DNA from: a virus
Taxonomy: Duplodnaviria > Heunggongvirae > Uroviricota > Caudoviricetes
IMG/VR virus record: IMGVR_UViG_2778261543_000007
Length of the DNA stretch: 10,385 bases
Reading direction: 5' to 3' (one strand)
This document shows positions 1,537-4,718 of the stretch, in pieces. The notes below the pieces were generated by a model, which was not told the origin of the DNA, made no database searches, and saw nothing but the letters and a program-made list of their open reading frames with translations. A program made the position numbers and the translations under genes. How positions within the stretch are numbered: the first letter of the stretch is position 1; every line of letters begins with the position of its first letter.

Positions 1537-1613
1537 TTACCTCTGAGGTAATTAAAAACCACATAAGACACGAAATCAATAGAGTTTAGAATATTTTGTT
1601 ACCCATCAGGTAA
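1537..1613 (-). promoter_or_regulatory. Operator pair plus sigma70-like promoter reading leftward into the 1186..1533 gene
   Basis: Perfect palindromes TTACC-N5-GGTAA at 1537-1551 and 1599-1613, centres 62 bp apart. On the minus strand: -35 TTGATT (1579..1574), 17-bp spacer, -10 TTTAAT (1556..1551), with the proximal operator starting at the last base of the -10. Same layout and sequence as the module at 4642-4718. Confidence 0.5.
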
Positions 1614-1650
1614 TTATCAAGGCGTAAAAAAATGCGCTATCGCGCTGGTA

Positions 1651-2436
1651 TTACTTGATAAATCCTGCCGCCTTTCCCCGCCTGTATTCCTCCATCAGCC
1701 ACTGCGCCGGTGTTATTCCCCCAAGGGTGGCGGCGTTAGGCATGCACCCGAAACTTCGCCCTGGTGGATGGTAAACGTCTCTCCCTGTGTCCGGAGGTGT
1801 ACTCATGGGCTCTGACTTTGCCTGTATGCTGATCACCGGATCGGGTATCTGCTGTCCGGAAGCCACCTTTTTCGCCCAATCATCGAGCAGCCTGCGCGCG
1901 TGTTTCTCAACCTCAATCTCGCTAAGCTGGCGCTGATACATTGCACGGCGGGTATCACATACGACCCAGTACATAACCGGATGCCGCCACGGGAATCTTT
2001 CGGGACCACCAGGATATAAACTTTTTTCCTTGCTGTACCGGTGAAACTCCGCCATCACATCGTCAATGGTGACGCCAAGAACCATCTTGCTGTCTTTACA
2101 CCACTTGATGAATTGCCCTGGCGACGGCCAGAACGGAGACTCACTGGCGCGGGCGTGGCGCATACCAGCAGAAACCTGTTCACGGGTTCGGATCCCCCCT
2201 TCGGCAAACGCAGCAATCCACTGCTGTTTTGCAGCAACTTCCTGCTCTGGCGTCTTCAGGTTGGTTACCACTGCCGCCGGAAACAGTTGTTTCAGCTGTT
2301 TGAAAAGGGCATCAACAAGCCTCTCTGCTGACATGTTCACCACATTGTCATTGTTGACGTACTGATGCTCATAACCTGACATGCGAGAAAGGGCTTCTCC
2401 GTCACGGTTTTGTATCGCGGTAAAAACGTTGTTCAC
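1651..2436 (-). CDS. P: Replication protein P-like (DnaB helicase loader)
   Basis: Translation matches my recollection of lambda P, e.g. GMRHARASESPFWPSPGQFIKWCKD against lambda GMRVARRQNRPFLPSPGQFVAWCRE. Start placed at GTG 2436, 6 nt after GGAGGA and overlapping the O stop (GTGA); the in-frame ATG at 2451 has no SD. Confidence 0.8.
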   Translation of the reverse strand: MNNVFTAIQNRDGEALSRMSGYEHQYVNNDNVVNMSAERLVDALFKQLKQLFPAAVVTNLKTPEQEVAAKQQWIAAFAEGGIRTREQVSAGMRHARASESPFWPSPGQFIKWCKDSKMVLGVTIDDVMAEFHRYSKEKSLYPGGPERFPWRHPVMYWVVCDTRRAMYQRQLSEIEVEKHARRLLDDWAKKVASGQQIPDPVISIQAKSEPMSTPPDTGRDVYHPPGRSFGCMPNAATLGGITPAQWLMEEYRRGKAAGFIK

Positions 2437-3248
2437 AAGAAATCCTCCCATGCTTCAGGGCTGTTCCAGTGCGGAACGTTGTTATCAGGTAATGTTGATT
2501 GCTTCTGTCTGCTAATCTGCATCCGCCTTGCCAGCTTCTGCTCCCACTGTGCCTGATGGTATGCCTTACCCTCAGCCATCCAGTAAATTCTGAACTCTGC
2601 AAGTTCCTGTGCCGTTGGCAGACTGTCCAGGTAGATCCCCTGCAATGAGCTTTTCCGAAGAAAGTCATCTGATGGTTGCCATTGTTCATGCATGACAAAT
2701 TTGCCTAATTGCCCTGGCCCACCAGGAGGAACAAAGTTATTCATCACGGCGTTGTTTGCGCCGGGGTCATGAGGCACAGAATTCCCGGTTTTTGTCCTGC
2801 TCTCCCTCTCTTGGTTAAATGACTGGTTATATGACTGGTTCTGGATCCCGTTTTTGGGATCATTCAACATCCCGTTTTTGGGATCATTCAACATCCCGTT
2901 TTTGGGTATATTCCCGTTTTCGGGAACATTACCGTTTTCGGGTTCATTACACCCATCTAGGTTGCCTTTAATGTTCCCTTTTTTGGTTATATTAAGAGAG
3001 AAAACCCGCACTCTTTTCGTCGCTCCCTTTCTCTCTCCGGTATCTGAAATAAGCCCCATTTTCATGAGCGATATAAGCCCGGCCTGTACGGTTTTTTTAT
3101 TCAGGCAAGTGTCTTTAACGAGGCGTTCTATGCTGGGGTAGCAGAGGTTATATTCATCGGCTCTGTCAGCCATCGAGAGCAGTATGAGCTTTAATGACGA
3201 GCTACCTGGATCTGTCTCCCAGGCCCAATCTGTTGCATGTCTGCTCAT
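2433..3248 (-). CDS. O: Replication initiator O-like protein (N-terminal HTH domain, repeat-encoded linker, C-terminal domain)
   Basis: Sits immediately upstream of and coupled to the P-like gene. SD GGAG 7 nt before ATG 3248. Contains an internal iteron array encoding repeated NG(M)LNDPK peptide units, as in lambdoid O proteins that carry the origin inside the gene. Confidence 0.75.
   Translation of the reverse strand: MSRHATDWAWETDPGSSSLKLILLSMADRADEYNLCYPSIERLVKDTCLNKKTVQAGLISLMKMGLISDTGERKGATKRVRVFSLNITKKGNIKGNLDGCNEPENGNVPENGNIPKNGMLNDPKNGMLNDPKNGIQNQSYNQSFNQERESRTKTGNSVPHDPGANNAVMNNFVPPGGPGQLGKFVMHEQWQPSDDFLRKSSLQGIYLDSLPTAQELAEFRIYWMAEGKAYHQAQWEQKLARRMQISRQKQSTLPDNNVPHWNSPEAWEDFL
2845..2947. 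repeat. Origin-like iteron array inside the O gene
   Basis: Two perfect 24-bp direct repeats ATCCCGTTTTTGGGATCATTCAAC (2845-2868, 2869-2892), then three degenerate copies (2893-2911, 2911-2929, 2931-2948). Each has an internal dyad TCCCGTTTT(T)GGGA. A further half-site sits at about 2783-2795, and an AT-rich tract at about 2953-3005. Confidence 0.65.
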
Positions 3249-3263
3249 GATTAATCTCCGCTA

Positions 3264-3464
3264 TCAGCTTGAATGTTGTGGGGAGGAATTAATCATGATC
3301 TGCTTAATCTCTGCCCTGATGCGACGGTTTGATTCCATGGTGCACTCAACACAGTGTCCGTTGTAAACCCAGCGTTCACTGTCATGTCCGTGCTTACATG
3401 GTTTTCCGGTGTAGTAGCGTTTAAGTCCGCGCTTTGCGGCATCAATACGTGTAATGATTTCCAT
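3264..3464 (-). CDS. Small Cys/His-rich (putative zinc-ribbon) protein, 66 aa, in the cII position
   Basis: Translation MEIITRIDAAKRGLKRYYTGKPCKHGHDSERWVYNGHCVEC... carries a C-x-H-x-H ... C-x-x-C pattern. The ORF-track start at 3527 is a TTG with no SD and a junk-like hydrophobic N-terminus, so the internal ATG at 3464 is preferred. Confidence 0.45.
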   Translation of the reverse strand: MEIITRIDAAKRGLKRYYTGKPCKHGHDSERWVYNGHCVECTMESNRRIRAEIKQIMINSSPQHSS

Positions 3465-3573
3465 GGCAAGCCCTGTTATTAGTATTGGGATTACGGTTAT
3501 TTTGTGCTGACACAAAAAAAAGATCAACCAGATTTGGTTTTTTATTACCTTTGAGGTGCGAATAGATATGAAA

Positions 3574-3593
3574 AGACCGCCGGATGGCGGTCT
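3574..3593 (-). terminator. Hairpin downstream of the cro-like gene; possible weak (tR1-like) terminator
   Basis: AGACCGCC-GGAT-GGCGGTCT, 8-bp stem and 4-nt loop. On the minus strand it is followed by TTTTCAT, a short T-tract. Confidence 0.3.
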
Positions 3594-3614
3594 ACAGAGG
3601 GTTGTGGCTGGATA

Positions 3615-3845
3615 TCATGAGTAGAAGAAGTATGCCAGTTCTGCTTTTGAGCGCAACCATTGTCTTGATTTACAGGCTTTAAAAAGCCCATTCATCAATA
3701 CTTTACCTGGCATTTTGCGCTTACCTGTTAAGTGAGTCTGGATATAGTGACTCGTCGTTCCGGCTTCCTGTGCGAAGGCTTCACGCTCATCCGGAGTAAG
3801 TGCAAGCCAGTGCTTTTTGAAATCGAAATGTCCGTTATCGCTCAT
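3615..3845 (-). CDS. Cro-like / YdaS-like small HTH regulator (76 aa), first gene of the leftward operon
   Basis: Position directly divergent from the repressor gene. Helix-turn-helix-like segment ...EAFAQEAGTTSHYIQTHLTGKR... Family assignment by architecture rather than strong sequence recall. Confidence 0.55.
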   Translation of the reverse strand: MSDNGHFDFKKHWLALTPDEREAFAQEAGTTSHYIQTHLTGKRKMPGKVLMNGLFKACKSRQWLRSKAELAYFFYS

Positions 3846-3877
3846 AGCTATTGCCTGATATTTATTTCAGATAATAA

Positions 3878-3944
3878 ATATTCACCCATAAGGTAACAAA
3901 AATCAAGGATAGTTACCTATGGGGTGCATTTACCTGTTGGGTAA
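3878..3944. promoter_or_regulatory. oR-like operator cluster between the divergent cro-like and repressor genes
   Basis: Perfect palindrome TTACC-TGTTG-GGTAA at 3930-3944, plus variants TTACC-TATGG-GGTGC (3913-3927) and TCACC-CATAA-GGTAA (3882-3896). Candidate leftward promoter: -35 TTGATT (3906..3901) and an AT-rich -10 around 3883..3877, overlapping the 3882-3896 site. Confidence 0.5.
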
Positions 3945-3999
3945 TATTGCTTTAAATTGAATCATCTACTGATTCATATATGAGGCGATTTTCCAGAAA

Positions 4000-4584
4000 A
4001 TGAAAAGTATCCAGGACGTCCGCAGGCAAAATCTCAACGACTTGATCGACCGTGAATTCAATGGTGTTCAGACGCGGATGGCAGAAAAACTTGGAACTCA
4101 GGCAAATCTGGTAAACCGCTGGGCTCTTGGCAAGAAGGTTATCGGCGACCAGGTTGCGCGAAAAATTGAAGCTGCCGCCAATAAACCCCGTAACTGGCTT
4201 GATATCGATCGCTCGCTTTCTCAGGAAGGTTTTCAGCCTGTCGGCCCAAGCGACATTGGTCAGCTGGCGGCTCACAACCTGGAACGCTGGATGAGCGAAA
4301 GCCGCGACCTTTCAACACAGGGAAAACTTCACCGCGCATCCGGCGTCGCCCAGGTGACAATCAGCCGCCTGTTAAACAATGAGGTCAGCGTTTCCATTTC
4401 CACCCTGGAGAATGTTGCATCCGCATTCGGGCGTCACGGCTATGAATTACTGATTCACCCGCACGACCCTGCGACTATCAACTATGACCGCTCGCGCTAC
4501 GCTTTGTTACCCGAAACCGAGAAAGCAAAGATCGAAAGTTACATTGAATTTGTCATCAACCAGAACGAAAAAAACAAACAATAA
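4000..4584 (+). CDS. Immunity repressor candidate (cI position): two HTH-like segments, no recognisable S24 peptidase domain
   Basis: Location between the oR-like and pL-like operator clusters, divergent from the cro-like gene. HTH-like segments ...QTRMAEKLGTQANLVNRWALGK... and ...HRASGVAQVTISRLLNN... No well-spaced SD before ATG 4000. Confidence 0.6.
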   Translation: MKSIQDVRRQNLNDLIDREFNGVQTRMAEKLGTQANLVNRWALGKKVIGDQVARKIEAAANKPRNWLDIDRSLSQEGFQPVGPSDIGQLAAHNLERWMSESRDLSTQGKLHRASGVAQVTISRLLNNEVSVSISTLENVASAFGRHGYELLIHPHDPATINYDRSRYALLPETEKAKIESYIEFVINQNEKNKQ

Positions 4585-4604
4585 AATCATATTTTTCAGT
4601 AAGT

Positions 4605-4628
4605 AAGCCGCCTTCTGGCGGCTTTTTT
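4605..4628 (+). terminator. Rho-independent terminator after the repressor gene
   Basis: GC stem GCCGCC / GGCGGC (4607-4612 and 4617-4622) with loop TTCT, followed by TTTTTT (4623-4628). Confidence 0.6.
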
Positions 4629-4641
4629 ATTGCCTGTTAGA

Positions 4642-4718
4642 TTACCTAACAGGTAATTTTTTTAACTCATATCTATTGACATCAAACCAGATACGCATAA
4701 TTATTACCTCAACGGTAA
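4642..4718 (+). promoter_or_regulatory. pL-like promoter with two palindromic operators, driving the rightward operon
   Basis: Perfect palindromes TTACC-TAACA-GGTAA (4642-4656) and TTACC-TCAAC-GGTAA (4704-4718), centres 62 bp apart. -35 TTGACA (4676-4681), 17-bp spacer, -10 AATTAT (4699-4704), with the proximal operator starting at the last base of the -10. Confidence 0.55.

Follow-up and report, generated by a model that had tools for sequence, protein, structure and literature searches.

What reads a short palindrome that recurs between the early genes of a prophage, and to what effect? The question is raised by a 10,385-nt stretch of viral DNA (IMG/VR record IMGVR_UViG_2778261543_000007, Caudoviricetes; the whole stretch is called the window below), in which a 15-bp palindrome, TTACCNNNNNGGTAA (TTACC-N5-GGTAA), and variants of it surround the gene of a 194-amino-acid (aa) protein, the lysogeny repressor Rep. 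The original prediction, made from the sequence of the window, took the repeats for phage operators in three clusters and likened them to the looping operators of lambda. The window turned out to belong to a phiV10/epsilon15-type (Uetakevirus) prophage, located at guaA in E. coli, and to represent its immunity and early region. We conclude, with a probability of roughly 0.85, that the palindromes, eight in all, are operators of Rep, tetramers of which would cover or flank the cores of the early promoters.

Palindromes between the early genes

We identified the window by its similarity to known phages. Positions 1100-5000 match seven phage records, phiV10, PAS61 and phiv142-3 among them, with 97-99% identity over at least 80% of the length (97.8% for phiV10), and ZX5 and TL-2011b with 97-98% identity over 66%. 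PhiV10, PAS61 and phiv142-3 are Uetakevirus (epsilon15-like) podophages. The window as a whole lies next to guaA as a prophage in E. coli chromosomes, and 52 complete genomes carry at least 80% of it.

The perfect palindrome TTACCNNNNNGGTAA occurs exactly five times in the window (starts at 1537, 1599, 3930, 4642 and 4704), against an expectation of 0.01, and none of 200 dinucleotide-preserving shuffles reached five copies. The core ACC-N5-GGT occurs exactly eight times where 1.45 are expected, namely in the five perfect sites and in variants starting at 3545, 3882 and 3913. The copies and variants listed in the original prediction were thus all recovered, and all eight are intergenic, as it had claimed for the perfect copies. 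In our own gene map intergenic DNA makes up 819 of the 10,385 bases, so that the binomial probability for the five perfect sites is p = 3e-6. A search with two mismatches adds just 3721 (inside the gene of a 76-aa protein, see below) and 8840, within the 2.9 expected by chance; we rejected both as operators, as they are at chance level and show no conservation beyond phiV10-type phages. A second palindrome, AACC-N6-GGTT, was also considered and by itself showed no enrichment in the window (6 matches, 3.7 expected); conservation is confined to a longer context beside operators, CATATRTGGWT (see below).

The bias against coding DNA holds for a whole genome. Complete phiV10 has 14 sites with at most one mismatch, 12 of which fall within the intergenic 6.5% of the genome (p = 4.5e-13); the remaining two (87-101 and 105-119, an 18-bp pair) are in annotated terS, no more than 80 bases into the gene. 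Apart from the sites homologous to those of the window, the phiV10 set comprises this terS pair and sites at 3252, 20497, 20877, 24692 and 26870, which makes at least five additional loci. The single ones precede portal-region genes, stand on both sides of the gene p24 for the antirepressor Ant, and precede the lysis cluster and the integrase gene. In a small sample of host DNA (76.7 kb of E. coli chromosome) the motif is at chance level, with no perfect and two one-mismatch copies, against nine in 23 kb of prophage.

We compared the sites in seven phages with four types of repressor: that of the window, phiV10, Tyrion, BUCT554, Klebsiella phage BUCT711, epsilon15 and SPC32H. The clustering seen in the original prediction held, but its count did not, because the site at 3545-3559 is a separate, fourth locus. 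The four regulatory loci are oR, between rep and the divergent gene of the 76-aa helix-turn-helix (HTH) protein; oL, after the rep terminator; a third promoter, P3, beyond the replication genes; and the single site at 3545-3559. Sites, putative promoters and the genes beside them are as follows.

1537-1551: P3 promoter-proximal site, TTACCTCTGAGGTAA; perfect at the equivalent place in 7 of 7 phages
1551-1579, minus strand: putative P3 promoter, TTGATT (1579-1574), 17-nt spacer, TTTAAT (1556-1551); same geometry as PL, conserved in seven phages
1599-1613: P3 promoter-distal site, TTACCCATCAGGTAA; 62 bp from the proximal site, a spacing found in 7 of 7 phages
3499-3527, minus strand: putative replication-operon promoter, TTGATC (3527-3522), 17-nt spacer, CAAAAT (3504-3499); TTGATC invariant in seven phages
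3545-3559: single site, imperfect, TTACCTTTGAGGTGC, with the terminator of the 76-aa gene on one side and the replication genes on the other
3574-3593, minus strand: intrinsic terminator of the 76-aa gene (terminator scan; annotated in phiV10)
3615-3845, minus strand: 76-aa HTH protein in the cro position, with an invariant helix, AGTTSHYIQTHLT (PHROG 35, 'transcriptional repressor')
3871-3906, minus strand: PR region with two candidate promoters, TTGTTA-17-TATTAT (3899-3871, promoter scan) or the family-conserved TTGATT (3906-3901)-17-GAATAT
3882-3896: oR site 1, TCACCCATAAGGTAA, overlapping the core of PR, the rightward promoter, which drives the 76-aa gene
3913-3927: oR site 2, TTACCTATGGGGTGC; 31 bp from site 1 (30/31 bp across the seven phages)
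3930-3944: oR site 3, TTACCTGTTGGGTAA, nearest rep; 17 bp from site 2 (invariant in seven phages)
4000-4584, plus strand: rep, the 194-aa lysogeny repressor
4605-4624, plus strand: intrinsic terminator of rep (terminator scan; annotated in phiV10)
4642-4656: oL distal site, TTACCTAACAGGTAA, followed by a conserved T-run
4676-4704, plus strand: promoter PL, TTGACA (4676-4681), 17-nt spacer, AATTAT (4699-4704); found by promoter scan with 10 of 12 sigma-70 consensus bases, conserved in seven phages
4704-4718: oL proximal site, TTACCTCAACGGTAA, starting at the last base of the -10 element and covering the expected transcription start

Rep and the conservation of its probable sites

The 194-aa protein is homologous over its full length to the repressor Rep of Salmonella phage SPC32H (PDB 5D50 chain A; 5D4Z), residues 1-190 aligning with 2-197 at E = 4e-42; the phiV10 and ZX5 repressors match it with 100% identity. 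It consists of an HTH DNA-binding domain at the N-terminus, a dimerisation domain in the middle (Pfam HTH_3), which accounts for the second 'HTH' match in Pfam, and a C-terminal segment for tetramerisation and Ant binding. In the Pfam search HTH families alone matched, and no S24 peptidase (autocleavage) domain was found. The recognition helix, N36-L-V-N-R-W41 (NLVNRW), is invariant in the aligned repressors of the genus, as are Y162, D163, Y167, L170, P171, E174, K175, K177, I178, F184, Q188 and N189 in the C-terminal segment.

For SPC32H, one report describes the same order of domains, with an N-terminal DNA-binding, a middle dimerisation and a C-terminal tetramerisation domain that also binds Ant (PMC9986798). 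According to a second report, Rep occupies palindromic DNA in the form of a tetramer, and each palindrome is contacted by DNA-binding domains from two different dimers; one tetramer is enough for repression, and tetrameric Ant dismantles the assembly (PMC9638917). Overexpression of the ZX5 repressor abolished free phage and lowered endolysin and holin transcripts by more than 99.9%, in a study that mapped no operators (PMC9782041).

The motif itself is annotated in a relative. The epsilon15 record (AY150271.2) lists seven 'protein_bind' features labelled 'repressor, lysogeny', all of the form ATTACC-N5-GGTAAT. Three are downstream of the repressor gene (spacings of 62 and 76 bp), one is between the replication genes and the next gene, and those of the late region precede terS, gp3 and the tailspike gene. 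Those downstream of the repressor gene and after the replication genes correspond in place to oL and P3 of the window, and three of the additional phiV10 sites have annotated counterparts in the record. The phiV10 record (DQ126339.2) lists terminators and no binding sites, and the PAS61 record is likewise without annotated sites.

Across the seven phages, Rep ranges from 100% identity to that of the window (phiV10) through 75-78% (Tyrion and BUCT554) and 45% (BUCT711) to 42% (epsilon15 and SPC32H), and yet the order and spacings of the sites are common to all seven (62; 30/31 and 17; 62/63 bp). Each phage has a perfect 62-bp pair immediately before the first gene beyond the replication module, a triple with spacings of 30/31 and 17 bp in the gap that separates rep from the divergent 76-aa gene, and a pair after the rep terminator that is 62 bp apart (63 bp in BUCT711). 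Epsilon15, SPC32H and BUCT711 have a third oL site, 74-76 bp further downstream, which the window lacks. The imperfect site at the position of 3545 was scored in six of the seven, BUCT554 retaining the GGTAA half alone. When all sites are pooled, ACC and GGT show essentially no variation and the outer TT and AA very little, the five bases at the centre being free. Between the window and epsilon15, the 47 nt that separate paired sites share just 57-66% identity. Fixed half-sites with variable centres and flanks are the signature of a protein site, and the unchanged half-site is consistent with the invariant recognition helix of Rep.

This pattern bears on the suggestion that the repeats are leftovers of duplicated promoter modules, or RNA hairpins, rather than protein sites. 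PL and P3 are indeed alike in overall layout, and the site at 4642-4656 lies within a hairpin with a 12-bp stem followed by a T-run. However, five-base stems are too short for a stable RNA structure, the hairpin is lost even in phiV10, the half-sites stay fixed across phages while centres and flanks change, and sites stand in non-homologous contexts across the phiV10 genome. We regard this explanation as very improbable. The hairpin (4629-4657), terminator-like and placed right after the rep terminator, was also considered as a conserved feature and rejected; its left arm is changed in phiV10 as well as in the other phages, and it is probably incidental.

Conservation cannot settle which of the two HTH proteins encoded here reads the sites, and the original prediction had named both. 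The 76-aa protein might mainly, or additionally, read the palindromes and compete with Rep in the manner of lambda Cro. One helix of its HTH is invariant among the six phages aligned, it belongs to a PHROG of transcriptional repressors, and the sites of oR are of unequal quality, as a two-protein switch would require. Against this stands the unrelated Pseudomonas phage PseuP_224. The N-terminal domain of its cI is 39% identical to that of Rep (E = 1e-12), the rest of the protein being different, and the gene is flanked by three TTACC-N4-GGTAA palindromes, with half-sites one base closer than in the window (positions 1422, 1461 and 2323). TTACC half-sites thus accompany a Rep-like N-terminal domain in a phage where no homologue of the 76-aa protein of the window was detectable among the neighbours of cI. 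A separate element beside the operators (see below) is, moreover, an alternative candidate target for the 76-aa protein. Nothing ties this protein to the motif, so this part of the original prediction found no support, and a role for it at the palindromes seems to us possible but doubtful. An unannotated 76-aa ORF (1161-1391) lies divergently upstream of the PseuP_224 cI.

We therefore retain Rep as the predicted reader of the palindromes; the homology to SPC32H, epsilon15 and ZX5, the footprint in seven phages and the avoidance of coding DNA strongly support the original prediction that they are phage repressor operators.

The centres of the sites differ between two groups of phages. In a small sample (all eight sites of the window with the corresponding ones of six phages, sites within a clade being non-independent) the GC fraction of N5 was 0.30-0.42 in phiV10, Tyrion and BUCT554 and 0.09-0.16, almost pure A/T, in epsilon15, SPC32H and BUCT711. 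The GC fraction of the flanks was similar in both groups (0.28-0.36). The composition of the centre could be a determinant of immunity specificity through indirect readout.

Promoters, spacings and a proposed model of repression

PL was found by promoter scan; the positions of the other promoters are inferred from alignment. At PL, 19 nt separate the end of the distal operator from the -35 element. P3 repeats this geometry on the other strand. Its distal operator lies 19 nt upstream of the putative -35, the -10 and the proximal operator share one base (the last of the former, the first of the latter), and the operator is followed by ATC and then ATG. P3 was not reported by the promoter scan because its -10 lacks the A at position 2. 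The right half of the proximal P3 operator, read on the minus strand (GAGGTAA), is also the Shine-Dalgarno sequence of the DUF1064 gene that follows. A different promoter, a scan match of the form TTGATA-16-CAAAAT with the distal P3 operator in its spacer, was rejected, as its -35 is not conserved even in phiV10.

The candidate promoter of the replication operon scores below the threshold of the promoter scan, and the centre of the site at 3545-3559 is some 60 bp upstream of where transcription would be expected to start. At oR, the site at 3882-3896 overlaps the promoter core with either PR candidate. A promoter for rep was not located.

Taking these positions with the homology to SPC32H, we propose the following model of repression. 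Two N-terminal HTH domains would read the ACC and GGT half-sites, which lie 10 bp, or one helical turn, apart. The active form would be a tetramer with two DNA-binding pairs, by homology to SPC32H, and one tetramer could hold two palindromes. At PL and at P3 the proximal site would cover the expected start and the distal one, 62 bp (about six turns, on the same face) upstream, would complete a pair that brackets the core promoter. At oR one site would lie inside the PR core, with two more 31 and 48 bp away towards rep, and a single weaker site would precede the replication operon. Occupancy by Rep would exclude RNA polymerase from each early promoter separately and so maintain lysogeny. As each early unit has its own terminator and its own sites, and sites are also present in late gaps of phiV10 and epsilon15, the phage appears to use distributed repression.

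The original prediction had instead compared the clusters to lambda oL and oR, which CI (as octamers) joins by looping. Long-range loops of this kind would connect oR either to the cluster at a distance of 2.3 kb or to oL. Homologues of Rep are tetramers with two DNA-binding units and could in principle bridge any two palindromes, and sites of the Rep type are dispersed over the whole phage genome. The comparison did not hold, however. The 2.3 kb separate oR from P3, not from oL, which is about 0.7 kb away because rep alone lies between; Rep is not of the lambda CI type and has no S24 domain. Inter-cluster distances track the lengths of the intervening genes (705-724 bp between oR and oL in the seven phages), with no fixed helical phase, and the constant spacings are local ones: 17, 30/31 and 62 bp. 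According to the SPC32H report cited above, moreover, a single tetramer suffices for repression. We thus consider long-range looping unlikely, and a 2.3-kb loop in the style of lambda is not needed for local repression by Rep.

Given that the 62 bp are constant and keep both sites on the same face of the helix, and that a Rep tetramer would have two DNA-binding units, one tetramer may bracket each promoter. On PL and on P3, Rep may act as a clamp, forming a micro-loop in which the roughly 47 bp between the sites enclose the -35 and -10 elements. Other geometries recur, namely the 17-bp pair at oR and the 18-bp terS pair of phiV10, and either may be the binding unit of one tetramer.

Several points weigh against our reading or its parts. 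Physical binding by Rep at these palindromes is a prediction for this phage, as are the promoter positions and the sharing of sites by a tetramer. The P3 and replication-operon promoters are deduced from alignment, and the -10 of P3 departs from the usual form at position 2. The protein_bind features of epsilon15 may themselves be predictions from the pattern, and conservation of the 76-aa protein equals that of the motif. Two separate tetramers on each 62-bp pair are equally compatible with the sequence data, and a loop of 62 bp from centre to centre would be very tight.

We noted a second conserved element, CATAT[A/G]TGG[T/A]T (CATATRTGGWT), 5-6 nt upstream of the promoter-proximal Rep site and in places a full palindrome, AACCATATATGGTT. 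It is found at 1557-1564 (minus strand), 3526-3539 and 4685-4698 in the window, at 3311, 20924 and 24736 in phiV10, and at 2991 and 24754 in epsilon15. All seven phages have it at P3 and beside the site at 3545, and Tyrion and BUCT554 have it at PL, where the window has a degenerate form. Intergenic promoters of the late region carry the element as well, some 45-50 nt downstream of a Rep-type site. This element may be the target of another regulator, for example the 76-aa HTH protein or the PerC-like and AlpA-like proteins.

One may go further and combine three proposals: the single-tetramer clamp over 62 bp; one half-site specificity throughout the genus, in phages of E. coli, Salmonella, Enterobacter and Klebsiella, with differences in immunity, if any, residing in the centres of the sites; and CATATRTGGWT as the target of the 76-aa protein. 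We hold this combination to be tentative, with the odds against all three being right at once.

In the absence of an S24 autocleavage domain in Rep, induction by an antirepressor is expected. Ant is not encoded in the window, and a search of the window for LexA boxes gave no match. In phiV10, p24 (20543-20837) is nearly identical to SPC32H Ant (5D50 chain E) in alignment (E = 3e-46), and a perfect LexA box, CTGTATAAATACACAG, lies just upstream. By analogy with SPC32H, induction would proceed from LexA to Ant, encoded outside the window, and on to the disassembly of Rep. Ant is far more conserved than Rep, p24 and SPC32H Ant being nearly the same where the repressors are 42% identical, so that differences in immunity, if there are any, are unlikely to lie in Ant. 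The phiV10 record gives the label 'anti-immunity' to the Bro-domain protein p23, not to p24.

The prophage and known systems

The remaining features of the window are as follows.

1-624, minus strand: Ead/Ea22-like gene
621-1124, minus strand: gene without assigned function
1186-1533, minus strand: DUF1064 gene (PHROG family 'Holliday junction resolvase'), ATG at 1533, heading the P3 unit
about 1625-1650, minus strand: terminator of the P-like gene, annotated in phiV10
1651-2451, minus strand: lambda-P-like gene
2433-3248, minus strand: DnaT/O-like initiator with internal iterons
3264-3464, minus strand: 66-aa gene
4738 onward, plus strand: leftward early operon of two small genes, YqaJ exonuclease, RecT, AlpA-like, PerC-like, methylase and phosphatase genes
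9129-10385, minus strand: integrase

Within the DnaT/O-like gene, five tandem repeats of 18-24 bp (ATCCCGTTTTTGGGATCATTCAAC and variants, 2845-2952) resemble the origin iterons found in lambda O. Compared with phiV10 the window is mosaic, as it encodes a separate 299-aa YqaJ-type exonuclease and a 340-aa RecT (5189-7120), with exactly the lengths of the epsilon15 genes, where phiV10 has an annotated recE-recT fusion. Another boundary lies at P3. The DUF1064 gene stands just downstream of the terminator of the P-like gene, and the junction TTACC..GGTAA-[A/G]TC-ATG (1531-1551 in the window, and homologues) is kept in six of the seven phages, the gap being slightly longer in BUCT711. The gene behind it is DUF1064 in the window, phiV10, BUCT554, BUCT711 and SPC32H, and of the RuvC type in epsilon15 and Tyrion. 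The junction is kept though the gene behind it differs, which places a mosaic boundary at the start codon.

In its main point the original prediction is correct and already known, since the structure of the repressor, the antirepressor and the motif have been described for sister phages. What our analysis newly supplies is an explicit map of the sites in phiV10-type phages, which is missing from the phiV10 and PAS61 records and from the ZX5 paper. The conserved bracketing at 62 bp, half-sites common to the genus in spite of 42% identity in Rep, and clade-specific centres are modest additional points. The map is a regulatory map of a common E. coli prophage, from a phage group used in the detection and typing of O157. 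It indicates the promoters that Rep should control and supplies operator and promoter parts, and adds no new principle.

The nearest known system is that of SPC32H and epsilon15. The Rep-Ant immunity system of Salmonella phages SPC32H and SPN1S was reportedly described by Kim and Ryu in 2013 and by Kim et al. in 2016. The window shares with SPC32H and epsilon15 a repressor homologous over its full length, the half-sites, the positions and spacings of the sites, and the order of the genes. The 194-aa protein has the architecture of SPC32H Rep (HTH, dimerisation domain, tetramerisation/Ant segment, no peptidase), and (A)TTACC-N5-GGTAA(T) stands at the promoters flanking rep and at the promoter after the replication genes. 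The differences are a Rep that is just 42% identical, N5 centres that are almost pure A/T in SPC32H and epsilon15, and the third oL site of these phages.

Lambda resembles the window in general plan. In both, the repressor gene lies between divergent early promoters with overlapping palindromic operators, three sites of unequal quality stand between the divergent genes, and a terminator of the repressor gene's own separates that gene from PL. The proteins and the operators themselves differ. Lambda CI has an S24 domain for autocleavage and oligomerisation, whereas none was matched in Rep, the C-terminus of which is homologous to the SPC32H tetramerisation segment. Lambda has three adjacent 17-bp operators about 23-24 bp apart at both oL and oR, in contrast to the 15-bp ACC-N5-GGT sites of the window, which are 31 and 17 bp apart at oR and just two, 62 bp apart, at oL. 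Lambda represses two promoters and relies on antitermination, whereas the phage of the window has sites for each early operon and, in phiV10, in gaps of the late region also.

In the spread of one motif over many intergenic regions, phiV10 (14 sites) and epsilon15 (seven) resemble phage P1, with its C1 repressor, and mycobacteriophage L5, with the 'stoperators' of gp71. The sites of P1 C1 and L5 gp71 are asymmetric. Unlike them, the sites of the window are symmetric palindromes, arranged in phased pairs around promoters.

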